Under the pieces are notes generated by a model, which searched no databases, was not told where the DNA came from, and saw only the letters and a list, made by a program, of their open reading frames with translations. Positions 515-19,546 of a stretch of 64,000 nucleotides of DNA are shown one piece after another. The stretch lies in NCBI GenBank assembly GCA_963726255.1, contig CAVSBL010000002.1:1440001-1504000 (forward strand). Direction: 5' to 3'. The DNA comes from Candidatus Bathyarchaeota archaeon (GTDB lineage Archaea > Thermoproteota > Bathyarchaeia > 40CM-2-53-6). How positions within the stretch are numbered: position 1 is the stretch's first letter; each line of letters starts with the position of its first letter. Position numbers and translations under genes: made by a program.

Positions 515-704
515 TGGCGGGCCCGCCGGGATTTGAACCCGGGACCCTTCCCCAAGAAGGCTTCTCAGCCGGTTTCTTTTCGGGTGGCTTCCCATGGGTT
601 CGAAAAGCCCAGAGGTAAAAGCGTCATCGACACCAGTCTGGCGTCTCCGATGCTCTACCTTTTCAGGATCCAGACTTGAAAGGATCTGACTGAGCTACGG
701 GCCC
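515..704 (-). tRNA. tRNA-Lys(UUU) with four BHB introns (D-loop about 17/17a, 30/31, 37/38, 43/44)
   Basis: Removing 687-661 (27 nt), 646-623 (24 nt), 615-586 (30 nt) and 579-548 (32 nt) gives a 77-nt cloverleaf GGGCCCGTAGCTCAGTCAGGTAGAGCATCGGGCTTTTAACCCGAGGGTCCCGGGTTCAAATCCCGGCGGGCCCGCCA. CCA is encoded. Confidence 0.93.
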
Positions 705-756
705 CGGACGCTCACAGCACGGTCCACTATCAAAAGCGTTTCGCAGGGACGAAGAT

Positions 757-1698
757 CTACGACGGTGCTTCCGCGAGAATCACGTTTACTTTGCCTCGGT
801 CGGCTCCGCGTCCAAGCGAGAGTTCAAGGCTTTCCCCGACCTTTCTGTGCTGAATCGTATGCTGCAGGTCGTCCCAACTCTTCAGCAGCTTCTTATCAGC
901 TTCCAGAATCACGTCGCCGGCCGACACACCGCTCTTGTTGGCAGGGCTTCCTCTACCGACTTTGACGATCAGCACTCCGTTCTCATGTGGGATATCATAC
1001 GATTCCGCGATATCCCTGTTCAGAGTTACCCCTGAGATTCCTAGGTACGGTCTGACAACTCGCCCGTTTTGTATAATCTCCTTCGCAATCATCCTAGCTG
1101 TATTGATTGGGATGGCGAAACCGATGCCCTGCGCAAAGGGTATGTTCGCAGTGTTAACGCCGATTACGGAACCCGCACTGTCAACCAAGGGGCCGCCGCT
1201 GTTCCCTGGGTTAATGGCTGTGTCGGTCTGAATCAAATCCTCATACATGTGATCTTCGATGTGTATGTGCCGTCTCAGAGCACTGACTACGCCAACGGTT
1301 GCCGTGGGGCCTGGAAGTAAGAAGCCGTACGGGTTTCCGATGGCGATGGCAATTTGCCCAACGACTAGGCTGTCCGAATCCCCCAACTTGACTTTAGGCA
1401 GGTCCTCGCCGTCAACGCGTACCACGGCGACGTCGGACGTGGCGTCCGAGCCTAGAACCTCTCCTTTGAATTTCTTGCCATCGGTTGTTACGACTTCAAC
1501 GCGGGATGCGTCTTCGACTATGTGGTGGTTGGTCAAGATTCCGCCGTTGGAATCGAATATTATTCCTGACCCTAGGCCACGGAGGGGTATGGTGTCGAAG
1601 AAATTCTCGCGAATCACCCGTAAAGTCGCCACAGACACTACGGCGGGGCTGACTCTCTCGATGGCAGCAATCACATCTTTCTCGGTACCTGGCAACAT
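757..1698 (-). CDS. htrA: HtrA/DegP-family trypsin-like serine protease with PDZ domain
   Basis: TNHH, DVAVV and GNSGGPL catalytic motifs, C-terminal PDZ, no signal peptide. Confidence 0.92.
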   Translation of the reverse strand: MLPGTEKDVIAAIERVSPAVVSVATLRVIRENFFDTIPLRGLGSGIIFDSNGGILTNHHIVEDASRVEVVTTDGKKFKGEVLGSDATSDVAVVRVDGEDLPKVKLGDSDSLVVGQIAIAIGNPYGFLLPGPTATVGVVSALRRHIHIEDHMYEDLIQTDTAINPGNSGGPLVDSAGSVIGVNTANIPFAQGIGFAIPINTARMIAKEIIQNGRVVRPYLGISGVTLNRDIAESYDIPHENGVLIVKVGRGSPANKSGVSAGDVILEADKKLLKSWDDLQHTIQHRKVGESLELSLGRGADRGKVNVILAEAPS

Positions 1699-1782
1699 TT
1701 TCTAGACCTCGAAGAAAATTGAAAGCGACAGCGGTCTATTTAATGACTAACCACAGAGACAATTAGACAAGAGGCGAACGAG

Positions 1783-1923
1783 ATGGATGATGCTAAGTAT
1801 TTCAAATGCGGAAAATGCGGTTACGAATTCCTATCCAAAACAGGCAACTCAACCTGTCCCAAGTGCAAGAGCCAAACGCTTGAGGAGAAAGACCTCAAGA
1901 GCTTGTTGGGGTTGGACGAATAG
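1783..1923 (+). CDS. Small zinc-ribbon protein (46 aa)
   Basis: Hand translation MDDAKYFKCGKCGYEFLSKTGNSTCPKCKSQTLEEKDLKSLLGLDE*. Two CxxC motifs, GAGGCG upstream. Confidence 0.75.
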   Translation: MDDAKYFKCGKCGYEFLSKTGNSTCPKCKSQTLEEKDLKSLLGLDE

Positions 1924-1995
1924 ACTCGGGACCATCCTCTCGAAACACACAAGCATTTGGTTAGCCTTTCTTGTAGAGGAGTGACGACCGCGGGT

Positions 1996-2099
1996 TGGCG
2001 CCCTTCGCCAGGAGAAGGCTAGCTGCTCCTTTGGGCGGGATTCGAACCCGCGTCGACGACGTGACAGGCCGTCATCCTAGACCACTGAACGACCAGGGC
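1996..2099 (-). tRNA. tRNA-Asp(GUC) with one BHB intron at 68/69 in the acceptor stem
   Basis: Removing 2031-2004 (28 nt) restores acceptor stem GCCCTGG/CCAGGGC, a 76-nt tRNA with anticodon loop CT-GTC-AC and encoded CCA. Confidence 0.93.
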
Positions 2100-2199
2100 A
2101 TCGGCAACTCAGAAATCCCTGAGCCAGCTTAAAGCATTGCTACAGCATAGGCACTAGGCGCATCTTACTTGTGTAAGGATGGAATAAGATACGGACTCA

Positions 2200-2310
2200 T
2201 TGTCGACTATTCTCTTAACCATCGTCGCGCTGCTGATCCTCGTCCCAGTGATACTAGTCTACTTTCGTTTTCGTCAACGCCTACTGCAACGAATTCTCAA
2301 AAACTCCTGA
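2200..2310 (+). CDS. Possible small single-pass membrane protein (36 aa)
   Basis: TTG start, MSTILLTIVALLILVPVILVYFRFRQRLLQRILKNS*: hydrophobic helix followed by a basic tail. Confidence 0.35.
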   Translation: MSTILLTIVALLILVPVILVYFRFRQRLLQRILKNS

Positions 2311-2312
2311 TC

Positions 2313-4034
2313 TCACCGATGGGTTGTAAGAACCTGTGCGAAATCGCTCTCGAAGTATTCGTCTCGGTTCCTTGTTGCGGCGCTTCTCAAATCGGTTTCG
2401 AATTTCCGAAGGTCTGCCCTCTTAATTTTTCCACTCACAGTCTTGGGCAACTCGCCAACGAATTGTATCATCCTCGGCCGCTTGTAGGGCGCCATTCGTT
2501 GCCTGGTGAAGTTGAAGATGTCTAAGGCTAGTTCTCTGGATGGAGTTTGGCCCGGCTTTAGCATGATATACGCTTTCGGAACGAACCCTCGCAACGGATC
2601 TGGGCTTGCAACGACTGCGACTTCCGTTATGGAAGGGTGGGCTAGAAGTTCGCTCTCTACCTCGAAGGCGCTTATCCTGTAATCTGAGCTCTTGAACACA
2701 TCATCTGCTCTTCCGATGAACCAGAAGTAGCCGGCGGCGTCGCGTGAAGCTAGGTCCCCAGTAAGATACCAATCACCGACGAAAACTTCCCTATTCTTTT
2801 CTCGCGGATCGATGTAACCTTCCATCACTCCAACGGGTTTTCGCGGCTTAACCCGAATAGCTAGGATACCATCTGTCTTCGGTGGAACAGGATTTTGATC
2901 ATCGTCCAGTATTTCGATTTGAAATCCTGGGGCTGCAACTCCCATTGAACCCAACTTGACATCCATGCCTGGGAAGAAACCAACCGTTACGGTCGTTTCA
3001 CTCTGCCCGAAACCTTCTCGAATCGTAAGCCCGGTACCATCGTGCACTTTCTGGTTTATTTCGGCGTTTAGGGGTTCGCCGGCACTGACAAGTTGTCTAA
3101 GCGAGAAATGGTAGGCCTTCAAGTTCTCTAAGAGTAGGAATCTCCAGACCGTTGGAGGGGCACAAAGGGTCCTTACACTATAGCTTTCAATCACGCTTAG
3201 AACATGTTTGGGGTCGAATTTTCCAGCGTAATTGTAAAGGAAGCTTGTGGCTTCTGCGTTCCAAGCCCCGAAAATGCTGCTGTATGCGTACTTCGCCCAA
3301 CCGGGCGCACTTATGTTGTAGTGCACATCACCCTTTCTGGCTCCAATCCAATACATCGTGGTTAGGTGCCCAACAGGGTAGCTTCCGTGGGTCTGCAGAA
3401 CAAGTTTGGGTTTGGCAGTGGTTCCTGACGTGAAGTAGATAAGAAGTTCATCTTCAGGACTAAATGTGTCCTCGCTTCGGAAGTATGCAGACTCGCCGTC
3501 AGCCTCAGCGTAATCAATCCACCCATTCGGCCCCCCCGCAACACTAACCCTAGACACGGAGTCGGCTATGGAAGCAGAATCAATTCGACTAGTTAGCTCC
3601 CTGTTGGTGAAGACGCACTTCGCCTTGCCTCTCCCAATTCTGTCTCGAATATCGTCAGCTGTCAGGAGAGTGGAACTAGGTATGATTACGCACCCTGACT
3701 TCATTGCCCCCAGAAAAATCTCGAATAGCTCAACCGAGCTAGACATCATCAGCACGATGCGGTCCTTCTTCTTGAGCCCGAGGTTCCTCAGGAAGTTGGC
3801 CGCCTTGTTGGACCGCTCCTTCATTTCCTGAAAACTAGCCTTCCTCTCTGCCCCCTTGTCGTCTACGTAGATTAGGGCGGGGTTGGAGTTTCTTCCAGCC
3901 AGTGTGTCGAAGTAGTCCAGAGCCCAATTGAACTTGTGCAGTTGCGGCCACTCGAATCCTGCCTTCGCCTGCTCATAGTTGTGTGCGTTAAGAAGAAAAT
4001 CCCTAGTTGCAATGAACTCTTCTAGGCCTGGCAA
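2313..4034 (-). CDS. Acyl-CoA synthetase (AMP-forming, medium-chain/ACSM-like)
   Basis: YFTSGTTAKPK, EGFGQSET, TGD, GRADD and PKTVSGKI adenylation motifs. Confidence 0.9.
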   Translation of the reverse strand: MPGLEEFIATRDFLLNAHNYEQAKAGFEWPQLHKFNWALDYFDTLAGRNSNPALIYVDDKGAERKASFQEMKERSNKAANFLRNLGLKKKDRIVLMMSSSVELFEIFLGAMKSGCVIIPSSTLLTADDIRDRIGRGKAKCVFTNRELTSRIDSASIADSVSRVSVAGGPNGWIDYAEADGESAYFRSEDTFSPEDELLIYFTSGTTAKPKLVLQTHGSYPVGHLTTMYWIGARKGDVHYNISAPGWAKYAYSSIFGAWNAEATSFLYNYAGKFDPKHVLSVIESYSVRTLCAPPTVWRFLLLENLKAYHFSLRQLVSAGEPLNAEINQKVHDGTGLTIREGFGQSETTVTVGFFPGMDVKLGSMGVAAPGFQIEILDDDQNPVPPKTDGILAIRVKPRKPVGVMEGYIDPREKNREVFVGDWYLTGDLASRDAAGYFWFIGRADDVFKSSDYRISAFEVESELLAHPSITEVAVVASPDPLRGFVPKAYIMLKPGQTPSRELALDIFNFTRQRMAPYKRPRMIQFVGELPKTVSGKIKRADLRKFETDLRSAATRNRDEYFESDFAQVLTTHR

Positions 4035-4197
4035 ACCTATCGTGCCCGAGTCAAATGGAGCTTCTTCTAAGGGTTATTTCCCATTTCTCGCATTAACAAG
4101 AAGCGCTAAGCAGCACTAAGTGTCACCATCGCAAGCGGCTAAATATTTCAGTCGACAAGAGCAAGAATGTCGGGTGATGCCAGGCCTGCCAAGGACG

Positions 4198-4650
4198 ATG
4201 CCAATCAATGAGGGCACGAAAGCACCCGATTTCACCCTGAAAGATCAAAATGGCAAGCGGGTAAGGCTTCGCGATTTCCGGGGGAAGAAGGTTGTTCTAT
4301 ATTTCTATGTTCGCGATGACACGCCCGGATGTACTAAAGAAGCGTGCAGCTTCCGCGACGGCCTTGCAAGATTGAAAGATGTTCCGGTGCTCGGCATTAG
4401 CCCGGACCCGGTTGACTCACACAAACATTTCGCAGACAAGTACGGCCTCCCGTTTACTTTGCTCTCTGACGAGAAAGCCAGGGTCGCCAAGAAGTTCGGT
4501 GTTTGGGGTAAGAAGAACATGTACGGTAGAACCTACTATGGAGTCATACGCTCAACTTTCATCATCGATGAATCCGGTACCATCAAACAAGAATACAAAC
4601 GTGTGAAGGTAGATGGCCATTTAAGCCAAATTATCAAGAATTTACGGTGA
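4198..4650 (+). CDS. bcp: Peroxiredoxin, BCP/PrxQ family
   Basis: TPGCTKEACSFRD motif. Start placed at MPINEG. Confidence 0.92.
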   Translation: MPINEGTKAPDFTLKDQNGKRVRLRDFRGKKVVLYFYVRDDTPGCTKEACSFRDGLARLKDVPVLGISPDPVDSHKHFADKYGLPFTLLSDEKARVAKKFGVWGKKNMYGRTYYGVIRSTFIIDESGTIKQEYKRVKVDGHLSQIIKNLR

Positions 4651-5144
4651 GGGCAACAACCCCTAGCTGGTCAGATCCTGTGGTAAACTTGGACGTTGCA
4701 TACGTCCCAACACCCAAGGACCTCGTTCGCAAAATGCTGAGGGTGGCAGGCGTGCGTCGGGGTGAGACCGTTTTCGACCTTGGGGCCGGGGACGGGCGCA
4801 TACTGATCGCGGCCGTGAGGGGGTTTGGGGCACGAGCCATAGGCGTCGAGATGGACCCGGAACGACTGGCCCGAATACAAGAACGATTAACTGCGACGGG
4901 CACAGAGGCAACAGTGCTTGCAGGAGATTTAATGCGGGTCGACCTGTCCACTGCAGACGTGGTCACGATTTACCTTTCAGAATCGGTGAACACCAAGCTG
5001 GCCGAAAAGCTGAGGAACGAACTCAAACCTGGGGCGCGGATAGTTTCACTAGACTACGTCCTCCCGGGATGGACCTCGGAACGAGACTTGACCGTCGGGA
5101 GCGGGGGTATCACACGCAAGTTATACTTGTACAGGGCTCAATGA
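4647..5144 (+). CDS. Class I SAM-dependent methyltransferase (protein-lysine MTase-like)
   Basis: YVPTP...DLGAGDGR motif I. GTGA overlap with bcp. Confidence 0.85.
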   Translation: MRATTPSWSDPVVNLDVAYVPTPKDLVRKMLRVAGVRRGETVFDLGAGDGRILIAAVRGFGARAIGVEMDPERLARIQERLTATGTEATVLAGDLMRVDLSTADVVTIYLSESVNTKLAEKLRNELKPGARIVSLDYVLPGWTSERDLTVGSGGITRKLYLYRAQ

Positions 5145-5281
5145 TCCGACTGCGCTACGCGCGGAATTACACTGCCAGAGAAAAAGGGCAAAATCAACCT
5201 CTTTTGACTCCGAAAAACACCCCGCCCCCCCAGGGGTACCTCCAACCGTGCGCGCACCGCTGAATCCAGAGATTTTGATGT

Positions 5282-5480
5282 TGGTCCCGCGGGCCGGAGT
5301 TTCATAGGGTTTGGCCCTATTTTGAATTCGCCGGACCGCGAATAGTCCTCCAGCGACACTCCGGTTTCCGTTGTTAGCCTAGTAGGCTGACATGGGCACG
5401 CCTTGGGCGCACACCTACAGCGTCTCCGTCACTCCGTATAAGAGGGACTCGGAAGCTCTACCAGGCTGAGCTACCGCGGG
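5282..5480 (-). tRNA. tRNA-Tyr(GUA) with four BHB introns (30/31, 37/38, 53/54, 59/60)
   Basis: Removing 5449-5422 (28 nt), 5414-5366 (49 nt), 5349-5327 (23 nt) and 5320-5299 (22 nt) gives 77-nt CCCGCGGTAGCTCAGCCTGGTAGAGCTTCCGGCTGTAGACCGGAGTGTCGCTGGTTCAAATCCGGCCCGCGGGACCA, with the archaeal Tyr identity elements C1-G72 and A73. Confidence 0.93.
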
Positions 5481-5612
5481 ACCGAGTCAAAGCCTTCGCC
5501 CTGTAGCCTATAAGGTTTCACGAAGTATCTGCCGACCCAGCCATCTTCGTTGTGAGGGAAGCGCCCGCGTTAAATCCTCGGAAACATTGTCCTCGTCCTT
5601 AGGTTAGTTTCA

Positions 5613-6021
5613 ATGACTTTCAAGCGATCTTTCCGTGTTCACTGGGTCGACACCGACATCGCAGGCGTCATGCACTTCAGCAATTTCTTTCGCTACTTCG
5701 AAGCCTGCGAAGAAGAATTTTACCGTTCACTGTCTCTACCTTTAACCGAAATTCGCGAGAACTTTGGCGTGATGTTGCCTCGCGTCGAGGTCCATTGTCA
5801 GTACACGGCTGCGTGCCGATTCGATGAACAAATTGATGTTACGTTGAGAGTTCGCGAAGTCGAAGAGAAGACCATCACTTACAATTTCCAAATATTTCGT
5901 CAATCAGACGGAAAACTCGACGGCCGAAGGCTACGTGAAATGTATCGCAGTAAATTCGGAATGGAAGGCTGTACCGCTGCCCGCTGAAATCGCAAAGACG
6001 GTTCGCAGCAGCATTGGCTAG
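5613..6021 (+). CDS. Acyl-CoA thioesterase (4HBT/YbgC hotdog family), apparent +1 frameshift near 5920
   Basis: DTDIAGVMHFSNFFRYFE motif. The expected C-terminus AEGYVKCIAVNSEWKAVPLP continues in another frame to TAG at 6019-6021. Confidence 0.85.
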
Positions 6022-6084
6022 GGCAGCCTGTTATACACAATCTCTCGCGGAGGCATAGAGCTTGCATACAGGAGAAAACGAACT

Positions 6085-6747
6085 CTAACGCTGCGACCGT
6101 CCACAGTGCTCGCAGAACGTTTGGTCGCCCGTGTTCACTGCGCCACAGAACCTACATTTCCAACCTAGAGCTTCGGCCGGAATGGTTTCACGCTTTTTTC
6201 CAGTCCCGATTCCAACCAAGGACAAAATCAACCCCACAAGAAAGACCTCGTAGCCGGCGAACTCGACAATTGGATTAAGGACGGTTAGGTTCTCGACTGA
6301 GTCTAGGCTGAAGATTACTACGCGGCGAGTGGTGTCTTGATTGTCGAAGACGAAGAAATAGGTCCCAGGGGTGGTGGGGGTGAACGTGAAGTTGTAGGAT
6401 ATCGCCGTTGGCCTAGCTAGAATGATTGCGCTAGGGCGCCCCGCCCGCCAAAGTGAGAAGTTTCCTTCATCCATCACGTAGAATGCTATTTCGCGTCCGT
6501 CGGTGACTTCCAAAGCCCCCTGCACTTGAACGTCCCCTCTCAGATCTGAGGAGAGGAAGGTGTAGTTTGAAGGCGGGACGGCTAGGAGTGTTGGGGGGAG
6601 GATTGGGTTAACAGTCTGAACGTGCGACGCGAATCCTACCGACTGAGCAATCGGGCTGAGAAATTGGGGGCCCTGCTCAATCGTAAATGCTCCGGCCACG
6701 ATTAGGATTAGACCTATGGTCAGGATTTTTCTTCGCGTCGTACTCAC
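6085..6747 (-). CDS. Membrane protein with beta-sandwich (GOLD/emp24-like) extracellular domain and C-terminal RanBP2-type zinc finger
   Basis: N- and C-terminal TM helices, GTYFFVFDN motif, WKCRFCGAVN...CEHC. Confidence 0.7.
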   Translation of the reverse strand: MSTTRRKILTIGLILIVAGAFTIEQGPQFLSPIAQSVGFASHVQTVNPILPPTLLAVPPSNYTFLSSDLRGDVQVQGALEVTDGREIAFYVMDEGNFSLWRAGRPSAIILARPTAISYNFTFTPTTPGTYFFVFDNQDTTRRVVIFSLDSVENLTVLNPIVEFAGYEVFLVGLILSLVGIGTGKKRETIPAEALGWKCRFCGAVNTGDQTFCEHCGRSQR

Positions 6748-6794
6748 CAGGTTCTATTCAGATTCGTGTGATGCCTCCACTGATGTGGGAGGGA

Positions 6795-6909
6795 TGGCGG
6801 GCCCGCGGGGATTCGAACCCCGGATCCCAGGCTTTCGCCGCGAACGCTCCGAAGGCTTACACGAATCGGTTCCATCTCTGTGTCTTAATCCTGGCTCGAC
6901 TACGGGCCC
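6795..6909 (-). tRNA. tRNA-Arg(UCG) with two introns (29/30 and 37/38)
   Basis: Removing 6877-6857 (21 nt, central helix ACAC/GTGT) and 6848-6834 (15 nt, relaxed BHB) gives anticodon arm CAGGC-CTTCGGA-GCCTG. CCA is encoded. Confidence 0.9.
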
Positions 6910-6955
6910 ACTACTCCGACTAGTCATGCTCAACGTCGGATAATTGTATATGGTT

Positions 6956-7123
6956 TCACCGTAAGCTCCTGTCAACCGCCAGTAAATCCAGCTTATCCTT
7001 CTCATCAACAACGTGCAGCTGACGACCAAATGCAAGAAGCGCTTCCCCCGCCCTCGTACGAGTGCCAGTTTCAGGCATCTCTCTCGAAACCAGGCGGGGT
7101 CGCAAGTCTTTCAAATCGCTCAA
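6956..7123 (-). pseudogene. Possible remnant of a NucS/DUF91-like PD-(D/E)xK endonuclease
   Basis: 55-aa hand-translated ORF containing GEALLAFGRQLHVVDEKDKLDLLAVDR, which stops before the expected IELK motif. Confidence 0.35.
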
Positions 7124-7371
7124 CCGTCCATCTATTGCTGACTATTGTTGCACCTTGCAGAGCTGTGATACATGCTGCTGCTTCAAGGCCTGCTTTGAAG
7201 ATAGAATCAAGGCTAAGAGCACCAATTAGGCCAGAAACATGTCGCCCGAGTCATCTGGCAAAAGCTGCCGGCCTCTTACTGGCTATTTAGGATAGAGGAT
7301 GATTCATCCATTTAACCTAACTACGTGCCATAGTTAAGTGCAGGCAGTACATAGGAATCAACATCAGCGTA

Positions 7372-8616
7372 TTGGGAAGGAGTCTGCTAATTGTGTCGAT
7401 CCACGCGCGGTGGATAATGCTTGGCGCAATCATCATCGTAGCCGTCCTGGGCTTGATCTCAAGCGGGCCCACAGCATGGGCTGGGGCGGTTCACCAAATG
7501 GATGACTCTACGATTACGGTTTCGTCGCTAACATCAGTTACTAGTTCCGAGTCATCCTCAGGGTCGACAACGGGTACGGTTGCATCCACGACACTCGAAT
7601 CGCAAACACCCTCGACCAGCCTGTCTCTCACTTCAACTGAGTCTTCGGTTGCATCTACGACTCTTGCAACTGAGACGGTATCCTCGACATCATCCCTTGC
7701 TTTTTCTTCGAGTACAGAGAATTCTGAGACCTCACTTACGTCGACAAGTGCAACATCTTCGTCTCTGACAACAGCGTCGTCAACAGACGTTACATCCACG
7801 TCGAGTTCCATGGCGACTTCCACGAACACGGAGACGTCATCTTCATCTACGCCGTTGGTTTCGACGACAGCGTCTTCAACGAGTTCCCTGACGTCTTCGG
7901 CAGTATCTTCGCCAGCTACTACAACGACTGCGAAAGTTGAAAGTTCCACGACATCGTCTGTGACCAAGACGATTGTCGTCACTAGTTCGGAAACTGCATC
8001 AAGCGACCCCCCGGGGCAAACTTGCAACTCCTACTATTGGAACCAAGGGAACTGCCATCAATACACCTGCTACTACAACAACTGTAATGGCAATTGTTAC
8101 AACTGTTACGGGAATTGCTACAACAGCAACTGCTATCCTACTCCTTGCTCTTCTAACTATCCAAACTACCCCTATGGTTGCAATCCAAATTACGGTTACC
8201 CGAACCAGTACCAAACAATCACGTCCACGGAAACGAGTTATTCAGCATTCACAGAAACCAGTTTTACAACCTCAACACAAACTCCCCAGCCAGTAACTTC
8301 AACAACCATACTAACAAGCACCACGGCTACAACTGATGCAACTCTCGTGACAACGTTCGGTACATTGGCGGGCATCTTCTTGGGGCTATTCCTCGCCACC
8401 CTGTTTCTACTGATGAGGCGGAACTCGTCCACCAGCCAGCAACTTTCCGATAACACTCCAGTAGAAGCGGGTCCAGTGCCTCAAACAGCGGTAGGAGAGA
8501 CGTCGAAGACATCTGGATCGTTCTGCATGAACTGCGGAATGAAACTCCCCAAGAGCGTTAGGTTTTGTGGCGAGTGCGGCGCGCGACAACCTAAACCTGC
8601 TAAATCCCAGCATTGA
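7372..8616 (+). CDS. Ser/Thr-rich (mucin-like) surface protein with Cys/Tyr/Asn-rich segment, TM anchor and cytoplasmic zinc ribbon
   Basis: Signal peptide, long S/T tract, CYN-rich block, TM helix, CMNC...CGEC. Confidence 0.8.
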   Translation: MGRSLLIVSIHARWIMLGAIIIVAVLGLISSGPTAWAGAVHQMDDSTITVSSLTSVTSSESSSGSTTGTVASTTLESQTPSTSLSLTSTESSVASTTLATETVSSTSSLAFSSSTENSETSLTSTSATSSSLTTASSTDVTSTSSSMATSTNTETSSSSTPLVSTTASSTSSLTSSAVSSPATTTTAKVESSTTSSVTKTIVVTSSETASSDPPGQTCNSYYWNQGNCHQYTCYYNNCNGNCYNCYGNCYNSNCYPTPCSSNYPNYPYGCNPNYGYPNQYQTITSTETSYSAFTETSFTTSTQTPQPVTSTTILTSTTATTDATLVTTFGTLAGIFLGLFLATLFLLMRRNSSTSQQLSDNTPVEAGPVPQTAVGETSKTSGSFCMNCGMKLPKSVRFCGECGARQPKPAKSQH

Positions 8617-11461: not shown

Positions 11462-12025
11462 ATGGAGAACAGCCCCGCGCCCGTTCCTCAAGCCCCTTCA
11501 CAGACACAAGAAAAGCCACTGTTCACTCCCTGGAACGCCGTGTCCGACGGGCGTTTGGTCTACTTACCATACAAATCTGAACTCATGGAGCTACGAGACC
11601 GGGGGTTCGGCGAACTCAGAAAAGACAAGCTTCTCCTGTCTTCATACGAATCCTTCTACCTCCTAGAGAAACAGAAAATTCGCGTTTTCACCAAGAAAAG
11701 CAACCGGGAGTTAGAGCTTCGAGACCTTGTCCGGACATTTTCCGTCGGTAGACCCGAGATCTGGATAAAGTACTTGGTCTACAGGGACCTACGGGACCGT
11801 GGTTACATAGTTCGCGAGTCCACCAGGGCTTTCGATTTTGACATTTACGGAAAAGGGCCGCTAAGGCGATTAATCTCGATCGTATACGAGGGTGGCGAGG
11901 CAAGCCTCAGGAAACTGAGAGGACTACTTCAATATTCTGACAAGGAAAAGAAGGAACTGATACTAGCAGTTGTAGACCGACGCACAGACATAGTCTACTA
12001 TACGTTGAACTCGTTAAAGGTCTAG
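11462..12025 (+). CDS. endA: tRNA-intron (splicing) endonuclease, probable structural (beta) subunit
   Basis: YESFYLLE, YLVYRDLRDRGYIVR and LAVVDRRTDIVYY motifs. No His after the DFDIY motif. Confidence 0.85.
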   Translation: MENSPAPVPQAPSQTQEKPLFTPWNAVSDGRLVYLPYKSELMELRDRGFGELRKDKLLLSSYESFYLLEKQKIRVFTKKSNRELELRDLVRTFSVGRPEIWIKYLVYRDLRDRGYIVRESTRAFDFDIYGKGPLRRLISIVYEGGEASLRKLRGLLQYSDKEKKELILAVVDRRTDIVYYTLNSLKV

Positions 12026-12040
12026 AGACCGAACGGCGAC

Positions 12041-12559
12041 TTATTGGGGCTGCCGAGCGTTGCAGTGCGGGCAGATAAGTTCTCCACCGTGCAACTGAGC
12101 ACCGCACTGAACGCAATACCTGACTTGAGCAGGGCCAGTTCCCAGCGGCGGGACTGTTTGGGGTATTGCTGATTCGGCGCCGCGGTGATGAACGGCGCCT
12201 CCTATTGCCCCGCCGAATGCACCCGCAACAACGTTCGTTAGGAGAATAAAAACGACTGCTTCCTGCAACTGCGACAAGGGCGGCGTCGGGCCAGCGGGGT
12301 TGGGGACCACCTCGAAAACCAGGAATATCTCTAAAACACCTAGAAAGAACGGTATCGCAAGGATACTAGCCAATGCACCCGTTGCAGCAGCCTGATTGAT
12401 CTTTCCGTGGAGGACGTAGGCTGCGACTGCCCCCCCAATTATGGCTCCAGTCGCCGTGGAAATGGGCGGATCAACCACAATGCCCAAAACCGCAGCGAGT
12501 ACACCGCCAACAACTAGGCCGCTGCAGGTTGCAGCCCAAAAATCCTTACTCTTGGCGGA
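12041..12559 (-). CDS. Four-TM membrane protein with C-terminal zinc ribbon
   Basis: Gly/Ala-rich TM helices, CVQC...CPHC. Confidence 0.75.
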   Translation of the reverse strand, partial: SAKSKDFWAATCSGLVVGGVLAAVLGIVVDPPISTATGAIIGGAVAAYVLHGKINQAAATGALASILAIPFFLGVLEIFLVFEVVPNPAGPTPPLSQLQEAVVFILLTNVVAGAFGGAIGGAVHHRGAESAIPQTVPPLGTGPAQVRYCVQCGAQLHGGELICPHCNARQPQ

Positions 12560-12683
12560 CATAGCAACTCTAACTCCCAGAATTCCAGCCTCGCTATAAA
12601 GGAATTGCACCTAAGTGGTCCACATTCGACTCACAATGTTATAGGAGGGGCTCTCGTAGCTGCAACCCCGAACGTGAAGAAAC

Positions 12684-13997
12684 TTGACCGCCAAAACATT
12701 CACCCTCCCGCGAGGGATCCGAGACACAGACTCTAATGAGATGAATCGAAGATTATGGCTCTACGACAAGATACGCGACGTTGTTCGAAGGTATGGGTTC
12801 CAGATGGTTGAACCTGCAACGATTGAAAACTTGGAAACCCTTGAAGCGAAGAGTGGGCCAGCCATCCGCAATGAAATCTACTGGTTCAAGGACAAAAGCG
12901 GCCGAAGCCTTGGCCTCCGTTTCGACCTGACAGTAGGCTTGGCGAGGATGGTCGCTAATCGCTCCGACCTACCCGAACCCATCAAGTTCGCCACGATTGG
13001 TGGAAACTGGCGGTATGACGAACCACAATTTGGAAGGTATCGATACTTCACCCAATGGGACGTTGAAATCTTCGGCTCTGAAAGCCCGTTAGCCGATGCT
13101 GAGGTGATTAGCGTTGGGGCGGATATTTTAGGCGGCGTTGGTTTGAAAGATTCCATTATCAGAATAAGTAACCGTAAGCTCACGGAAGCTTACCTAAAGC
13201 AGTTAGGTATTCGTACGGGCAAGGCACTCGACCAGTGCCTCAGAACCATCGATAAGCTACGAAAAGCGAACCGCCCGCAGCTCGAAAAGGAGTTCCAAGC
13301 GGCCAAAGCAAAGAAAGATGCAATTGAAGACATCTTCTCGTTCATTTCTCTGAATGGCTCGCCCGAGAATGTTCTTGCGAGGCTGGATGGCTTCACCTTC
13401 AAGGAAGAGAATGCTAAGAAGGGTTTGGAGGAGTTGAAGATTCTAGCAGACGCATTAGCATCATTCGGGCGTTTGGGAATCTGTGCCTATGACCTCAGCA
13501 TAGTGCGTGGCATCGGTTACTACGACGGAATCGTCTTCGAAGCTTTCGACAAGGGTGGGGAGGACGTGGGCTCAATCTTCGGAGGGGGAAGGTACGATCG
13601 CCTGTGCAAGATATACGGAAAACGCGACATACCCGCAACTGGCGTGGCTGGTGGAATTGAACGCCTCATGATCTCCCTAGAACGGGGCAACCTGTTTCCG
13701 AAAAGCCAACTCGGTGCTAAAGTCTTCGTCGCAACGGTTCAGGAGAGTCTTAAGCAGGAGGCCATCAAGCTAGCCCAGAAACTTCGCGAGAACGGTGTGG
13801 CAACCGAAGTTGACTTGAAAACACGACCTTTCGGTAAGCAGCTAGAGTATGCTAATACGACAAGGATTCCATACTTGATAGTGCTCGGCCCACAAGAACT
13901 TCAATCGCAAATGGTCAAGGTTAAGGATATGGCCACTCGGAACGAAATGGAAGTGCCCTTGACCGGTCTAGTTGAGAAACTTCAGTCGCTGAATTAG
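12684..13997 (+). CDS. hisS: Histidine--tRNA ligase
   Basis: LRFDLT, WRYDEPQFGRYRYFTQ, RGIGYYDG and GGGRYD motifs, C-terminal anticodon-binding domain. Confidence 0.96.
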   Translation: MTAKTFTLPRGIRDTDSNEMNRRLWLYDKIRDVVRRYGFQMVEPATIENLETLEAKSGPAIRNEIYWFKDKSGRSLGLRFDLTVGLARMVANRSDLPEPIKFATIGGNWRYDEPQFGRYRYFTQWDVEIFGSESPLADAEVISVGADILGGVGLKDSIIRISNRKLTEAYLKQLGIRTGKALDQCLRTIDKLRKANRPQLEKEFQAAKAKKDAIEDIFSFISLNGSPENVLARLDGFTFKEENAKKGLEELKILADALASFGRLGICAYDLSIVRGIGYYDGIVFEAFDKGGEDVGSIFGGGRYDRLCKIYGKRDIPATGVAGGIERLMISLERGNLFPKSQLGAKVFVATVQESLKQEAIKLAQKLRENGVATEVDLKTRPFGKQLEYANTTRIPYLIVLGPQELQSQMVKVKDMATRNEMEVPLTGLVEKLQSLN

Positions 13998-14422
13998 TCG
14001 CCGCCTATGAAGACTTCTTTCTCATAAGACTGTAGTATTGCAGTTAGGGTAGCCCGCTCACCGACTAAGTCACGCGTAGACACCACCCCAACCAACTTCC
14101 CTTGCTCGTCGACCACGACCACATGCCTGATTCTGTGTTTGTTCATGGCCTTAGCAGCTTCCGCCACTTCGGAGCTGGCCTTGACGGTGACAACCTGTTT
14201 CGTACTCACCTCGTCTATCGGCGAGGTTAACTTTCTGCCCGACGCTATCGCTTTCATGATGTCTCTTTCGGAGACAACTCCGGCAAGTTTCGTTTTGTCC
14301 CCGGCTTCGCATATGACTAGGAGTCCGATGTTGTTCTCAACCATGAGCTTCGCCGCATCAACCATTGATCTTCCGGCCGGAATCGTGACAGGGGGCCGCT
14401 GGATTATGTCCCCAACGATCAT
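13994..14422 (-). CDS. CBS domain pair protein
   Basis: Two CBS repeats (GVVSERDI, GVVSTRDL). Confidence 0.9.
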   Translation of the reverse strand: MIVGDIIQRPPVTIPAGRSMVDAAKLMVENNIGLLVICEAGDKTKLAGVVSERDIMKAIASGRKLTSPIDEVSTKQVVTVKASSEVAEAAKAMNKHRIRHVVVVDEQGKLVGVVSTRDLVGERATLTAILQSYEKEVFIGGD

Positions 14423-14424
14423 GT

Positions 14425-15593
14425 TTACTGATCCTCCGCCCTGCCAAGTCTAGAATCTATCGGGATATATGGCAGCGCCGTTTTTCCCACGTATAGAGCC
14501 TTAGGTCGAATCAGCCTGTTTGCTTCTAGATATTCAATCGCGTGCGCGGTCCATCCGGCAATTCTACTCATGGCGAAGATGGCGGTGAACAAATCTGTGC
14601 TGATTCCAAGCACGTGAAAGACGATGCCTGAGTACGAGTCCACGTTCGGGAAAATCGGAAGCCCCTCGAGGTGTTTTCGCCGCTCGTCTCAATCGCTTCC
14701 GCTGTGTCGAATAACTTCGTTTGGCCCCTCTTTGCCGCTAGTTCTCCGCCAAGTTTCTTTAGAATCACATATCTTGGATCCCAAGTCTTGTAAACGCGAT
14801 GGCCGAATCCCATGATCTTCTTTTTCTGAGCGAGGCATTCGGTGACGTAACTCTCCGCTCTAGATGGCTCGCCCACCTCCATGACCGTCCGCAATGCAGC
14901 TTCGTTAGCGCCCCCGTGGAGTGGCCCTCTCAACGTCCCGATCCCTGAAGTTATTATGGAGTACATATCCGCTAGCGTTGAAGCAGTCACCGTGCACGAG
15001 AAGGTTGACGCGTTCATCTCGTGCTCCGCGTGAAGAATCAGGGCGACATCCATGACCTGGGCGTCGTACGGCTCAGGCTCCTTTCCCGTTAACATATACA
15101 GAAAATCTGCTGCGTGACTTAGTCCAAGTTTTGGTAAAATGGGCTCTCTTTGGTTTCTTATTCTGTCAAATGCGGTAATTATCGTGGGTGTTTTAGCTAA
15201 GATTCTAAGCGCCTTATCGATTCGTTCCTCGATGCTGTCCGTCATCGGGTGAGGGTCGTACACGCCGAGGGCCGAGACTGCTGTCCTTAAGACGTCCATT
15301 GGATCGCTGCTGGCGGGACATGAGCGAATTAGTTGCAGCACGCCTGGCTCAAGCGTGCGGTAGGACTCAATTCGACCCTTGAATTCGTCCAATTGGGATT
15401 TTGTTGGGAGCCAACCGTAGATGAGCAGGTAGGTAGTTTCTTCGAAGGTGGAGTGTTCGGATAGGTCATCGATGCTGTAGCCGCGGTAGAAGAGTTTGCT
15501 CGCTTCTCCGTCTATAAAACAGATCTTACTCTCTTTCACGTATACATTGTCAAGCCCTTTGTGAATGACAACGGGCTCTTTTACAGCAGTCAA
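14425..15593 (-). CDS. gltA: Citrate synthase / 2-methylcitrate synthase, apparent -1 frameshift near 14680
   Basis: HAEHEMNAST, LHGGAN and MGFGHRVY motifs. FPNVDSYSG...SRIAGW continues in the next frame (ORF 14425-14643). Confidence 0.9.
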
Positions 15594-15674
15594 TTCGACC
15601 TGAATGTGATTCTACCTGGTCGTTTATACAAATTGCTTAGAAAAAAGAGAGGAGGGAAAATTTAGCCGGTTGGA

Positions 15675-16439
15675 CTAGGTGATTGTTACTGTGCCGTCGC
15701 CCAGGAACCAGAAGGGAGGCGTGTAAACCGTATCGAGGGGATCTTTCGGTACCATATTCGAATATGGCGAGACCGTACTGTACACCGAGTCTAGAACGTC
15801 GTTCCCATTTGACAGGTAGCTGACCAGTTGGCCGGTTAGATCGTCAATTAGGCCAAATTGGAGTGAGATGTCCCCGTTGCAAGCGACCGCTGCTCGAGCA
15901 CCTGCACTAACTAAGGCCTGGCCAATTCCGTTGGAATTCGAGGATATGAGCAGAATTAGTTTGACGTTGCTGAGAGAGCCGGGTGAGAAGTGGTTGGTGA
16001 AGAAGTCGAGGTCAACCCCTAGGGTTCCAGCGTTACCATTGATCCAGCCTTGACTGAAGTCCGAGGCGTATTTCTGTTGCGTCACACCATTGACTACCTC
16101 TCCAACGTACCAGTAGGTGGTGTGAGCAAATGTGTACGTGTTCGAGCGCCAGATTATTACATCATAATTATTCAGTTGAGTTAACAGGAAATCAATAGTG
16201 ACTGCGGAGTCGTTAACGAAAGTTACCTGATATCCGGCGTGCTTCAGATCCTCACTGATCAGCTTGCCATGGAAGCCCATGTGGGCCAGTGCCTCGAGAG
16301 ACGACAGTATGACGGCCTTGCGTTGGCTTTGCGCTAGAACGGGGGGCAACCCAAAGCTTAGCGCCGAAACAGGTGCGACCCCAACGACTGGGATAGACAA
16401 TAGTACCATTATGACTGCGGCAAGAAATATTCGTTGCAA
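15675..16439 (-). CDS. Secreted hypothetical protein
   Basis: Signal peptide, 254-aa ORF, followed by a U-rich tract. Confidence 0.7.
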   Translation of the reverse strand: MQRIFLAAVIMVLLSIPVVGVAPVSALSFGLPPVLAQSQRKAVILSSLEALAHMGFHGKLISEDLKHAGYQVTFVNDSAVTIDFLLTQLNNYDVIIWRSNTYTFAHTTYWYVGEVVNGVTQQKYASDFSQGWINGNAGTLGVDLDFFTNHFSPGSLSNVKLILLISSNSNGIGQALVSAGARAAVACNGDISLQFGLIDDLTGQLVSYLSNGNDVLDSVYSTVSPYSNMVPKDPLDTVYTPPFWFLGDGTVTIT

Positions 16440-16685
16440 ATTCTACACCTTTGCGGGCAGGAAGGATTCCGGGAAATAAAGAGTATCCTCGGAGGGTAAC
16501 AAATGCAAGTAAAAAATGCTCGAGAAAATTATTGGGAGTTACGACCCGGATACAACGAGCCCGTAGACGCGGACACTGCAATACGCGTTGTTCGTTTTAA
16601 TGTTTCAGTGACTTCTTGATGCAAAGGCGTCAATGAGTCAACAATGGCTGATGCTTCTAATCGCCTGTTGAAAGAAATGTGAATT

Positions 16686-16874
16686 TCACTTGCTGAAATG
16701 AATAAGCAAAAGCCCGAGAGCTACGAGGACGCTCCCCCGAAAGATCGTGTCCCATGCCAAGTTGAATGGGCCGAATCGCCAGTAAGATGCGCCGTACGCG
16801 TTGCCCAAATAGAGTCCGCCAAATGTGCAGATTAAGCCGCCTAGGTATTTCATGAGCCTTGAAATTAACGCCAT
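16686..16874 (-). CDS. Small two-TM membrane protein
   Basis: 62 aa with two hydrophobic segments. Confidence 0.5.
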   Translation of the reverse strand: MALISRLMKYLGGLICTFGGLYLGNAYGASYWRFGPFNLAWDTIFRGSVLVALGLLLIHFSK

Positions 16875-16983
16875 GTTGATTCAGGGTGAGATGGCGCATT
16901 GGATTTGTGTTAATGGCTTGTGGCCTCATCCCCATGAAACATTAATATACCTATAATGGTACACTATTGTTTCGGCGCCCGAT

Positions 16984-17757
16984 ATGTCCCACGCTTCCAG
17001 AACACCACCCTGTAACTCCGACACGGAAACGAGGTCGGCGACGTTCCCAGCCCTATACGAGCTCTCTCGGCCACTACTGGACTACAATATCGTCATCGCC
17101 ATCGTCAAGGGGGATGTCGGGGCAGTCAACATACTCAAAGACGCGATGAGCATTTCAAAGGACCTTCGCATCGACAACCTAATTCTGGCGCTAGGACCTA
17201 CTACGCCGCTGTCGCTCCGACCACCTTCAGGATCGAGAATATTGTGGGCAACATTCACTGACGGCCAAAACCTCCTAAACGGCCCCCGATTAACCATAGT
17301 GCCACCAAACCAGCTCACAGACCTAAGCTTGAGCCTGGAAAAACTCTCCAAAACAAGAACCGGCCGCATTCCACTAATCATGGGAGACTTTCTTGACAAC
17401 GTGCTCTCCGTCTCCTCAGCCCCAGCAGAACTCTATTCATTCTTATGCAAACTCTTCACCAGAATTCGGACAAACGGGCAGACGGCGTTCTTCGTAGCGA
17501 CAGAGGATTTGCACGACTCAAAGAAAACTGCAATACTCAAGAGGTTCGCCGACGTTGTCATCGAATACCGAGCAGTACAGGAACTAACCGAGAGCAGGCT
17601 GGAAGCTCGTATCTTCGACCACGCAGAGAACCACTACACTATATGGGACGAGAAAAGCACGTACTCGAAATATGAAAATCGACCATTCCTAAGCCACGAG
17701 CTTCCAAAGATCGGGCGCCAGCCCAACCTCATCACCGAAGCCCAAGGATATTTCTAG
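16984..17757 (+). CDS. Hypothetical protein with degenerate RecA/KaiC-like C-terminal half
   Basis: LIMGDFLD...LKRFADVVIEYR resembles inactive KaiC-like folds. No Walker A. Confidence 0.55.
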   Translation: MSHASRTPPCNSDTETRSATFPALYELSRPLLDYNIVIAIVKGDVGAVNILKDAMSISKDLRIDNLILALGPTTPLSLRPPSGSRILWATFTDGQNLLNGPRLTIVPPNQLTDLSLSLEKLSKTRTGRIPLIMGDFLDNVLSVSSAPAELYSFLCKLFTRIRTNGQTAFFVATEDLHDSKKTAILKRFADVVIEYRAVQELTESRLEARIFDHAENHYTIWDEKSTYSKYENRPFLSHELPKIGRQPNLITEAQGYF

Positions 17758-17781
17758 CAAGTCGGACTGAACAACGAGAAG

Positions 17782-19068
17782 TTACGCGGTTCTTATCGTT
17801 GCTGCCCCTTGCAGGCCAAGCTCCTTAATTGAAATCTCCCGCATCTTGAACTTCTGGATTTTCCCCGTAACCGTCATAGGAAACGAGTCTGTGAACTTGA
17901 AGTAGGCTGGAACCTTGAAGTACGCTATTCTCGCTTTGCAGTATTCCTGAAGTTCCAGGGCTGTTGCAGTCTGCCCAGGTTTCAGTTTGACCCACGCCAT
18001 GACTTCTTCTCCGTACTTTCGGCTTGGAACTCCGATTACTTGAACATCCGAAACCTTGGGATGCGTGTAGAGGAAATCTTCCACTTCTCTCGGGAAAATC
18101 TTCTCGCCGCCACGGCTAATCATATCCTTAGTTCGCCCGACGATGTTCACGTAGCCATTCTGTTGCATAACTGCAAGGTCTCCAGTGTGCATCCAACCCT
18201 CGGAGTCAATGGCTTCCCGAGTGGCTTCTGGATTGTTCCAATACTTCAGCATCACGAGGTAACCGCGAACGCACAACTCTCCCGCAGATCCGCATGGTAG
18301 AGTTCGGCGATGAACATTGTTGGTACGCCGTGAAGCGCTGTGCACTTTTCCTCCTCCACAGTCCTGAGGACGGTTTCCGCGCTGAAAGCATCCGAGGGAA
18401 GAACCATGGTTGCACCATGGGTAACGCACGCAAGGTTCCCTAGCACCATTCCGAAACAATGGTAGAAGGGTACTGGGATGCACAATCTGTCGTGGTGAGT
18501 GAAATTCATTCCCTCGCCAACGAAGAAACCATTATTCAAGATGCCATAATGGGTTAGGGTGGCGCCTTTCGGAAAACCAGTGGTTCCCGACGTATATTGA
18601 ATGTTGATGGCGTCATAACATTCGAGCGCCCTTTCTCTTTCTCTAAGCTCGGCTGGGGAGGAGTTCATTGTTCCGATGTCTATGAAACGTTCCCAGGGAA
18701 GCATTGAGGATGGGGAGGGCTCACCGCAATTGCTGAGTGTTATGACTCGTCGTAGGGCGGGGACACGGGTTGCTTTGATTTCCTGGTCAGGCGAATTGAG
18801 TCATGACCCATTCCGCGTTGTTCGGGGACCATATGCCGACGCAATCTCCCTTCTGCACGCCGAACCCGAGAAGCGCTGCGGCAAATTCATCCACCCGTTC
18901 CTTGAGCTGTGCGTAAGTGAACCTGAGGCCCTGATGCCTTGAAACGAGCGCCTCTCCATCCTCATACCTAGAGACTACCTCGTCGAAGAAACTCCCAACC
19001 GTCTTTTCGATGAGAAGCCTATCTGCCGGGCCTTGTTGGTAGCTTGGGCCCGGCCTGTTTTCCTTCAT
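17782..19068 (-). pseudogene. Long-chain acyl-CoA synthetase (ACSF2-like) with two internal deletions and frameshifts
   Basis: Three fragments in different frames (…WVMTQFA | …[12 protein letters not shown]…IAELYHAD | GELCVRGY…TGKIQK). Conserved segments are missing at about 18789 and 18284. Confidence 0.8.
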
Positions 19069-19144
19069 TTGCGCTCGCACGCCGTTTGGGGTTTGGGGGT
19101 GGAAGAATAGTTCTTGGTACCTTTACTAAATACGGTAAAATGCT

Positions 19145-19292
19145 TGGCGGGCCCGCGGGGATTTGAACCCCGGACTTCTGCACTGGCCTTCCAGTTCTAC
19201 AGCTTTTTCCGGGTGTTCCTTAGGGGGTTCGGCAACAATCTCCGCCTCTTTAAGCGGAGCCTGCCGCTCTATCCAACCTGAGCTACGGGCCC
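19145..19292 (-). tRNA. tRNA-Arg(CCU) with three introns (30/31, 37/38, 45/46); C at position 33
   Basis: Removing 19260-19228 (33 nt), 19220-19205 (16 nt) and 19196-19176 (21 nt) gives a 78-nt tRNA with A20 and anticodon arm GCAGC-CCCCTAA-GCTGT. Confidence 0.85.
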
Positions 19293-19382
19293 AGAGCTGG
19301 AACGGGGCGGCTAAAGTAAAAGGATTAAGGCGGGATGATTCGAAGAAGCTTAAAGAATCAACGGGTTTTCCTTTGGGGTTGA

Positions 19383-19546
19383 GCGGGGATACCCGAGCCA
19401 GGTCAAAGGGGCAGGACCACCAGCCCGCTGGTGGGGCCATACTTAAGATCAGAACTTGCCTTGGGCAAAGAGAAGGCATCCTGTGGCGTAGAGCCCACGT
19501 ATGGACGCGAAAGCCTTCAGGGGTTCGAATCCCCTTCCCCGCACCA
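19383..19546 (+). tRNA. tRNA-Leu(UAA) with three introns (30/31, 37/38, variable arm)
   Basis: Removing 19416-19440, 19448-19477 and about 19-21 nt within 19486-19512 gives a class II tRNA of about 88 nt with CAGGA-CTTAAGA-TCCTG, A73 and CCA. Divergent from tRNA-Arg(CCU). Confidence 0.9.

Follow-up and report, generated by a model that had tools for sequence, protein, structure and literature searches.

According to the accessible parts of PMC8450103, archaeal tRNA genes hold up to three introns, and approximately 70% of these introns are canonical. The richest genome given there is that of P. calidifontis, with 71 introns in 46 genes (1.54 per gene), compared with means of 0.84 per gene for Thermoproteales and 0.21 overall. 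In excerpts of 10.1101/2023.11.21.568159, wetland Asgard archaea have 92 to 95% of their tRNA genes interrupted, with 228 introns in three genomes. Excerpts of an Asgard census (preprint 10.64898/2026.10.13.758758) give corrected figures of 2.2 intervening sequences per gene and a maximum of five, report almost no intron families, and state that the presence of the splicing endonuclease EndA does not explain where introns pile up in Asgard. Here, we describe the interrupted tRNA genes of a 64,000-nucleotide (nt) stretch of DNA from a Candidatus Bathyarchaeota archaeon (assembly GCA_963726255.1, contig CAVSBL010000002.1, forward strand), which we call the window, and of the genome around it. 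In our numbering, the window is G000:C2:1440001-1504000, and the assembly comprises 2.42 Mb in five contigs.

We estimate a probability of roughly 85% that a soil-type Bathyarchaeia archaeon uses these as its working tRNA genes, nearly all of them split by one to five short bulge-helix-bulge (BHB) introns of 12 to 62 nt and spliced by the known EndA/RtcB pathway. A first-pass annotation, made by a model from the letters of the window, had put the tRNA genes forward as an undescribed system. On our reading the mechanism would be the established archaeal one, and it is the lineage and the density that appear to be new.

Six tRNA genes of the window

All six tRNA genes of the window are interrupted, with 4, 1, 4, 2, 3, and 3 introns in order of position (17 introns in total, 5 of them canonical at site 37/38 and 12 noncanonical). 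Hand dissection, a dynamic programme (DP) described below, and comparative alignments led to exactly the genes, outer coordinates, and intron counts that the first-pass annotation had listed, and the sites it had named (D-loop, anticodon stem and loop, variable region, T-arm, and acceptor stem) are borne out by the resolved positions. After intron removal, the six genes fold as cloverleaves with scores of 26.4 to 33.4, compared with at most 20.3 for 141 unaccepted anchor clusters of the genome, so the calls are beyond chance. Three more T-loop-like motif matches in the window (at 42576, 53017, and 54630) score 9 to 17.5 and are not tRNA genes. On the same 64 kb, ARAGORN reported one tRNA, and Rfam reported two at the gathering score and three with permissive filters.

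We derived the rule for placing introns from tRNA-Asp(GUC), which has an encoded CCA and lies at window positions 1996-2099 on the minus strand. ARAGORN and Rfam both call this gene intron-free at 2025-2100, with three acceptor mismatches. Excising 28 nt at site 68/69 in the 3' acceptor strand (2004-2031) gives a perfect acceptor stem, and the motif at the junction is a strict hBHBh' (4/2/5, where the three values are the pairs in the central helix H, the exon-side helix h, and the intron-side helix h'). In the resulting rule, the 5' exon ends in a 4-nt helix strand plus two bulge bases, and the intron ends in the complementary 4 nt plus two bulge bases. A window search restricted to strict BHB motifs recovered Asp only, and relaxed motifs recovered tRNA-Lys(UUU) and tRNA-Tyr(GUA), with four introns each. 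The structures of tRNA-Arg(UCG), tRNA-Arg(CCU), and tRNA-Leu(UAA) were worked out by hand with the help of alignments. Using the six window genes for calibration, we wrote an exact DP that fits a cloverleaf with introns allowed anywhere, at a penalty graded by BHB quality; the 37/38 site has a penalty of its own, and other motif-free jumps carry a high cost. Two other designs were discarded: a motif-free cloverleaf programme with a flat intron penalty gave wrong solutions for five of the six window genes, and a DP bonus for likeness to reference tRNAs left the hardest gene unsettled.

For comparison, we aligned orthologous loci of seven genes (6 to 18 sequences each); all sets cover the genus, and some also include other families of the order. 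In all seven, the exons are invariant or nearly so. The introns differ among the sequences in both length and base sequence, and substitutions within their internal helices often compensate each other. All 14 of 14 genus sequences carry the Asp intron at 68/69, and its loop varies among them.

The Lys(UUU) gene, with encoded CCA, lies at 515-704 on the minus strand and has a DP score of 29.7. Its four introns are at 17/17a (661-687, 27 nt), 30/31 (623-646, 24 nt), 37/38 (586-615, 30 nt), and 43/44 (548-579, 32 nt), with BHB values in this order of 4/1/5, 4/4/7, 4/5/2, and 3/3/5. The 4/5/2 motif of the 37/38 intron forms only once the 30/31 intron has been removed. In an alignment of seven genus sequences, the exons are conserved and four variable blocks stand between them in all seven. 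The Tyr(GUA) gene (5282-5480, minus strand) was found by our own search alone, with no call from Rfam or ARAGORN. It carries introns at 30/31 (5422-5449, 28 nt), 37/38 (5366-5414, 49 nt), 53/54 (5327-5349, 23 nt), and 59/60 (5299-5320, 22 nt). One of six genus sequences (L078, genome G004) lacks exactly the 53/54 intron, a presence/absence polymorphism.

Rfam scored the Arg(UCG) gene (6795-6909, minus strand) at 38.5 bits with one large insertion, which hand analysis and the DP resolved into two introns, at 29/30 (6857-6877, 21 nt) and 37/38 (6834-6848, 15 nt). Both sites are also interrupted in four genus sequences and in L055 (genome G027) and L056 (G025), which belong to two other families of the order. 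The Arg(CCU) gene (19145-19292, minus strand), the hardest of the six, was solved by the DP after calibration. It has introns at 30/31 (19228-19260, 33 nt), 37/38 (19205-19220, 16 nt), and 45/46 (19176-19196, 21 nt), and two of the three have weak BHBs (4/1/0 and 2/5/2). Three variable blocks separate invariant exons in 18 of 18 aligned sequences, including two genomes of another family. Position 33 of this tRNA is C rather than the near-universal U in the window genome and in 14 of 17 relatives; the other three (L051, L053, and L054) have T, and in relatives with T33 the central helix of the canonical intron gains one pair.

The class II gene tRNA-Leu(UAA) (19383-19546, plus strand) has three introns, at 30/31 (19416-19440, 25 nt), at 37/38 (19448-19477, 30 nt), and in the variable-arm loop (19492-19512, 21 nt). 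We took the borders of the last from the comparative register; the DP placed it at 19487-19506. In the nine aligned sequences, the variable-arm stem changes in a compensatory way (GGC/GCC to AGC/GCT), and this fixes the register, which gives a 4/4 central helix in eight of eight relatives and only 3/4 in the window genome.

Interruption across the genome

We extended the search to the whole genome with three kinds of anchors: contiguous T-arms, D-arms with a matching acceptor strand and CCA, and blastn matches to 40 compact reference tRNAs from one class-level relative. Among the 186 anchor clusters, real genes score at least 21.5 and the bulk of the null at most 20.3; tRNA-Glu(CUC) and tRNA-Pro(CGG) were added through targeted searches. 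In total, we counted 45 tRNA genes with 108 introns (2.40 per gene), and 44 of the 45 genes are interrupted. The genes carry 43 different anticodons, with the usual three CAU genes, and form the standard archaeal set, each present once, with only His(GUG) missing. A check for split or permuted genes found all 45 colinear, and 43 of the 45 encode CCA. In the two others, the discriminator base is followed by CCT in Ser(GCU) (G000:C2:1248189-1248362) and by CTA in Ala(GGC) (G000:C2:2180643-2180749).

The number of genes with 0, 1, 2, 3, 4, and 5 introns is 1, 8, 17, 11, 7, and 1, respectively; the sole intron-free gene is Arg(CCG), and the sole five-intron gene is Trp(CCA). The most frequent intron site is the canonical 37/38 (30 of 108), followed by 30/31 (13), 59/60 (9), 29/30 (7), and 45/46 (7). 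The first-pass annotation had named, as one outcome that would overturn its proposal, a remaining tRNA set that was mostly intron-free or canonical; the set is neither, given 44 interrupted genes and 30 canonical introns among 108. Intron length ranges from 12 to 62 nt (median 22). The central helix is 4/4 in 71 introns, 3/4 in 31, and shorter in 6, and 26 of the 108 introns have a strict hBHBh' motif. For 17 introns, the best motif is available only after a neighbouring intron has been removed. An intron at 29/30 or 30/31 is present in 20 genes, 15 of which also carry a 37/38 intron. This test of motifs is partly circular, as the motif helped choose the introns; the comparative alignments are independent of it.

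Standard tools give a different picture before and after intron removal. ARAGORN recognised 44 of the 45 spliced products, each with the same anticodon as ours, compared with 7 of the 45 genes on the raw genome and 30 in its single-intron mode. On the whole genome, Rfam found 17 tRNAs at E <= 0.001, 15 of them longer than 89 nt, and even at E <= 1 it gave no match on the Trp, Pro(CGG), and Glu(CUC) loci. All 38 spliced products that have a compact tRNA of the same anticodon in the class-level relative align with it end to end, with a median identity of 81% (range 67 to 92%) and a length difference of at most 3 nt.

We examined the error rate of the DP by running it on the orthologues of the window genes. 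For 50 of the 61 sequences, its solution matched the structure supported by the alignment, and its errors were mostly merged or shifted introns. It was correct for 6 of 7 Lys, 14 of 14 Asp, 6 of 6 Tyr, 7 of 7 Arg(UCG), 10 of 18 Arg(CCU), and 7 of 9 Leu sequences.

Several points weigh against our reading of these genes as working, intron-split tRNA genes. The calibration of the DP used the six window genes, and its output contains some errors, so the total of 108 is approximate and may be off by several introns in either direction. Its weakest calls are Gly(CCC), the one spliced product that ARAGORN does not recognise, and Pro(CGG), whose score of 20.8 is barely above the 20.3 reached by the null. 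Six introns have fewer than three central-helix pairs, and 45 have a 4-bp helix and lack one outer helix; four of those six lie at 37/38, where the anticodon stem provides an outer helix of 5 to 7 bp. A tRNA-His(GUG) gene was not found by blastn with reference tRNAs, by the DP on candidate loci, among candidates with acceptor stem and CCA (exact or with one wobble), or in a hunt for orphan 3' halves; this gene may be more fragmented than the others, split, or outside the assembly. The assembly is rated 9.3% contaminated, and a mixed tRNA set is argued against by the fact that each anticodon is present in a single copy. Finally, we infer the excision of the introns from the DNA sequence.

Splicing machinery, lineage, and age of the introns

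The genome has two matches to PF01974, the splicing endonuclease family. One is in the window, where the first-pass annotation had pointed to an EndA subunit close to the tRNA genes. It is a real subunit, one of two, of 187 amino acids, encoded at window positions 11462-12025 on the plus strand (PF01974, 52.5 bits; PF02778, 33.8 bits). Its best match among solved structures is the homotetrameric enzyme of M. jannaschii (58 bits), with no match to crenarchaeal structural chains. In the alignment with M. jannaschii EndA (1a79), the residues aligned with Tyr and Lys are kept and there is a gap at His; the catalytic roles of these three residues we take, as an assumption, from the M. jannaschii literature. 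This protein also is without an 11-residue loop of its paralogue. Because of the gap at the His-aligned position and the absent loop, the window EndA is, as judged from its sequence, a putative beta-like, non-catalytic partner.

The predicted catalytic alpha subunit (188 amino acids) is the PF01974 paralogue, encoded on the minus strand at approximately 748 kb of the same contig (L018:1468-2034). It aligns over its full length with chains from A. pernix (3P1Z_B, 143 bits), S. tokodaii (2CV8, 131 bits), and P. aerophilum (2ZYZ, 102 bits), and its Tyr/His/Lys motif region is aligned with 3P1Z_B and 2CV8. The alpha loop GKPVGIPKPKPEQEF aligns without gaps with the A. pernix and S. tokodaii chains and is absent from the beta-like paralogue and from M. 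jannaschii EndA. In the portions consulted of PMC3241643 and PMC5829648, the Crenarchaea-specific EndA loop is linked to broad substrate specificity. The first-pass annotation had called for the catalytic EndA and RtcB to be located, and both were found elsewhere in the genome, as was Archease. RtcB (571 bits) lies at C2:1172995-1174305 and Archease (128.5 bits) at C2:276921-277337, each in a single copy. The Archease gene lies approximately 100 nt from the tRNA-Ser(UGA) gene (G000:C2:276703-276827). An mRNA intron in cbf5 was considered and rejected, as the TruB_N match is one open frame without stops.

On these components, splicing would proceed from one precursor transcript per gene, in which each exon-intron junction would fold into a BHB or a relaxed form of it. 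The two-subunit endonuclease, with a catalytic alpha subunit bearing the crenarchaeal-type extra loop and the non-catalytic beta-like subunit from the window, would cut both bulges, and RtcB, aided by Archease, would join the exons. Where introns are close neighbours, one would have to leave first; in the common pairing of a stem intron at 29/30 or 30/31 with one at 37/38, the outer helix of the 37/38 motif exists only once the stem intron is out. Both this order of excision and an (alpha-beta)2 tetramer with broad specificity are deduced from the predicted structures and should be taken as probable features of the pathway rather than as observations.

To place the genome, we used the window EndA protein as a query, which retrieved 16 related loci from species genomes. 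The record titles read Candidatus Bathyarchaeia or Bathyarchaeota for thirteen of them, just "archaeon" for one, and name bacterial bins for two, which agrees with the earlier impression of a Bathyarchaeia-like, non-Thermoproteales genome. The 16S match spans 1548 nt against a 1478-position model. As a proxy for tRNA interruption across the lineage, we used the number of Rfam-detectable tRNAs per genome (E <= 0.001), which is not an intron count and depends on completeness and tool filters; genomes were at least 85% complete in the genus, family, and order sets and at least 90% complete in the other orders of the class. The median was 14 in the window genome's own genus (16 genomes including it, range 8 to 16), 14 in other genera of the family (20 genomes, range 5 to 22), 19 in other families of the order (25 genomes, range 7 to 30), and 33 in other orders of the class (32 genomes, range 17 to 48). 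The tRNA-interruption signal is thus graded from the class down and peaks in the window genome's family.

We sampled 41 genomes of the class and found two EndA paralogues in 38, those with many detectable tRNAs among them. As the pair also occurs where many tRNAs are detectable, the type of EndA permits the intron load and does not explain it. The beta-like subunit scores 46 to 57 bits against PF01974 in the window genome's order and 70 to 89 bits in most other orders, and it is also low in the intron-poor family f19; because of this family, divergence of the beta-like subunit does not track the tRNA-detection proxy.

The alignments also bear on the age of the introns. When all 108 introns were compared with one another by blastn-short, a single pair matched (11 nt, E = 0.007), and there is therefore no sign of intron families. 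Given this, and given that the sites recur throughout the genus and, in the genes sampled that widely, in other families, the sequences suggest that the introns are old, were inherited vertically, and are now and then gained or lost. The heavy intron gain of the first-pass annotation, understood as a recent event, does not agree with these data: the compared introns are common to the genus and, where sampled, to other families of the order, and they form no sequence families.

The five-intron Trp(CCA) gene (G000:C2:266772-267000, minus strand; L132) has the identical five intron sites in 11 of 11 genus sequences. Its 37/38 intron (59 to 61 nt) and 45/46 intron (19 nt) are near-invariant in these sequences, unlike its other three, which hints that these two serve some function in their own right. 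The Trp intron of some archaea carries the sequence of a methylation guide RNA. No Rfam family matches the introns of this Trp locus.

A bolder version of our reading holds that the order, and above all the family, has a greater tRNA-intron load than any other known prokaryote, that this load is ancient and was inherited vertically instead of spreading through transposition, and that the EndA of the lineage accepts looser substrates, with more obligatory splicing order, than any characterised enzyme. The part on EndA follows from the numbers above, since approximately a quarter of the junctions are strict BHBs and about one in six needs a neighbour removed first. We put this version forward tentatively, as a possibility that we would sooner bet against than for.

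Alternative readings and relation to known systems

The alternative that survives best concerns novelty, namely that the intron richness of this lineage has already been described. Supplements to the tRNAscan-SE 2.0 and Asgard papers and resources of the GtRNAdb type may include Bathyarchaeia. A full-text literature search on Bathyarchae* with tRNA introns or splicing endonuclease, in which subscription journals were mostly outside the scope, gave no report, and the string "Bathy" is absent from the main text of the Asgard census preprint (10.64898/2026.10.13.758758). Considering both sides, an earlier description is unlikely, if well within reach.

The first-pass annotation had offered disruption of viral attachment (att) sites as a possible driver, and the second alternative follows it: the introns became fixed through their disruption of the tRNA attachment sites of integrating elements. 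Downstream direct repeats of a tRNA 3' end are the usual footprint of integration into tRNA genes, and degenerate repeats of this kind, each of the gene's own 3' end, lie 0.8 to 5.5 kb downstream of four genes: approximately 1.0 kb after Thr(GGU) (G000:C2:134675), 0.8 and 2.0 kb after Ser(GCU) (1249146 and 1250397), 2.2 kb after Ser(CGA) (1891492), and 5.5 kb after Pro(GGG) (973592). The Ser(GCU) gene has a 59/60 intron, and its downstream repeats have an uninterrupted T-loop. In addition, a 3' end resembling that of tRNA-Pro occurs at approximately 19 places spread across the chromosome, the real gene included. Each copy has the T-arm and the acceptor strand, often followed by CCA, with at most four mismatches to a 31-nt core; examples on G000:C2 are at 378376, 459575, 465184, 467519, 471426, 486053, 973592, 1087979, 1089143, 1192687, 1967278, 1967898, and 2003423. 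Around these copies no longer repeat was found, only approximately 40 to 48 nt being shared. Integration into tRNA genes thus seems to have happened in the lineage.

Other observations count against att sites as the driver. No PF00589 integrase match is present anywhere in the genome. Integrases usually use the 3' part of tRNA genes, whereas most introns here are in the D and anticodon arms. At C2:471313-471446, a segment with 87% identity over 134 nt to the 3' part of the window tRNA-Lys, including its 37/38 and 43/44 introns, is fused to a Pro-like acceptor end, which indicates that intron-bearing DNA was itself duplicated. We consider an att-site driver improbable as the explanation of the introns; the data neither support nor exclude it, and they give no causal link from the repeats to intron gain. 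Separately, an orphan Pro-like 5' fragment, which comprises the acceptor strand and D-arm and reaches into the anticodon stem, lies at G000:C2:907081-907115 (L127 41-75), adjoining a small open reading frame on the opposite strand. No complementary candidate stood out as its partner 3' half, and none was found for the many 3' fragments either.

The third alternative is that an intron-tolerant search splits genes too finely and that the true load is within the Thermoproteales range of at most 1.5 introns per gene. Free jumps and weak motifs are indeed permitted by the DP, which had six genes for its tuning and arrived at alternative solutions for 11 of the 61 orthologue sequences; the poor central helices of six introns fit the same suspicion. 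Against this, a count that makes no use of motifs shows that the 45 genes span 2,557 nt beyond mature length, or approximately 57 nt per gene, compared with a median intron of 22 nt. The number of variable blocks equals the number of called introns in the seven aligned genes, the errors of the DP on orthologues are mostly merges, which lower the count, and the spliced products are within 3 nt of the compact references in length. A density overstated to this degree is therefore very unlikely. That the interrupted genes are decaying pseudogenes or assembly artefacts, with working tRNAs elsewhere or outside the assembly, could be suspected from a metagenome-type assembly of five contigs with a 9.3% contamination estimate and no tRNA-His, but it is scarcely credible when each anticodon occurs once with no compact second copy by Rfam, ARAGORN, or anchors, when exons stay invariant across up to 18 genomes while introns drift (the pattern of purifying selection on exons), when the same structures recur in independent assemblies, and when 43 of 45 genes encode CCA.

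If the genes are working and spliced as proposed, this would be a second, unrelated lineage of soil archaea with near-total, multi-intron interruption of its tRNA genes, beside the Asgard families. Dozens of related genomes and a signal graded from class to family would make it testable by comparison how and why tRNA introns accumulate, and the degenerate motifs and junctions that depend on splicing order would offer naturally occurring substrates with which to probe how far EndA specificity extends. There is also an effect on judgments of genome quality. Covariance-model and ARAGORN scans recover only 17 and 7, respectively, of the 45 tRNA genes, and in the family (36 genomes including the window's) Rfam finds 5 to 22 per genome. 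Counts of tRNAs are used as criteria of genome quality, and such criteria would mark good genomes of this group as incomplete.

Compared with Thermoproteales, as far as the accessible parts of PMC8450103 describe them, the genome is alike in its short BHB introns, in the many noncanonical positions (D-arm, anticodon stem, variable loop, T-arm, and acceptor), and in the occurrence of several introns per gene. It also shares a two-subunit EndA with the crenarchaeal-type loop and introns that must leave before a neighbour's motif can form. It differs in density, with 2.4 introns per gene against a maximum of 1.54 and up to five in one gene against three. Thermoproteales are marked by intron transposition families, whereas one weak pair stands out among the 108 introns here. 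Moreover, the genome belongs to a different class, and its closest named relatives are metagenome-assembled genomes rather than cultured thermophiles. In its endonuclease, the genome resembles the crenarchaeal (alpha-beta)2 enzymes (3P1Z, 2CV8, and 2ZYZ), with two paralogous genes, an alpha subunit with the loop, and a second subunit without the His-aligned residue. Unlike in those enzymes, the beta-like subunit matches the M. jannaschii enzyme best, and its orthology to the crenarchaeal beta subunit is putative.

The soil Asgard archaea (Atabeyarchaeia and Freyarchaeia) are the nearer parallel in extent, judging from excerpts of the two Asgard sources. In both groups nearly all tRNA genes are interrupted (92 to 95% there, 44 of 45 here), more than half of the genes have multiple introns, many introns are noncanonical, intron families are few or absent, and standard tools miss many of the genes. 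The density is about that of the intron-rich Asgard families, with 2.4 introns per gene here and 2.2 there and a maximum of five in both. The two are unlike in descent, since Bathyarchaeia are an unrelated phylum-level lineage on the TACK side. They also appear to differ in history: the introns that were compared here are common to the genus and, for two genes, to other families, which suggests an old acquisition, whereas the consulted portions of the Asgard study reconstruct many gains on terminal branches.

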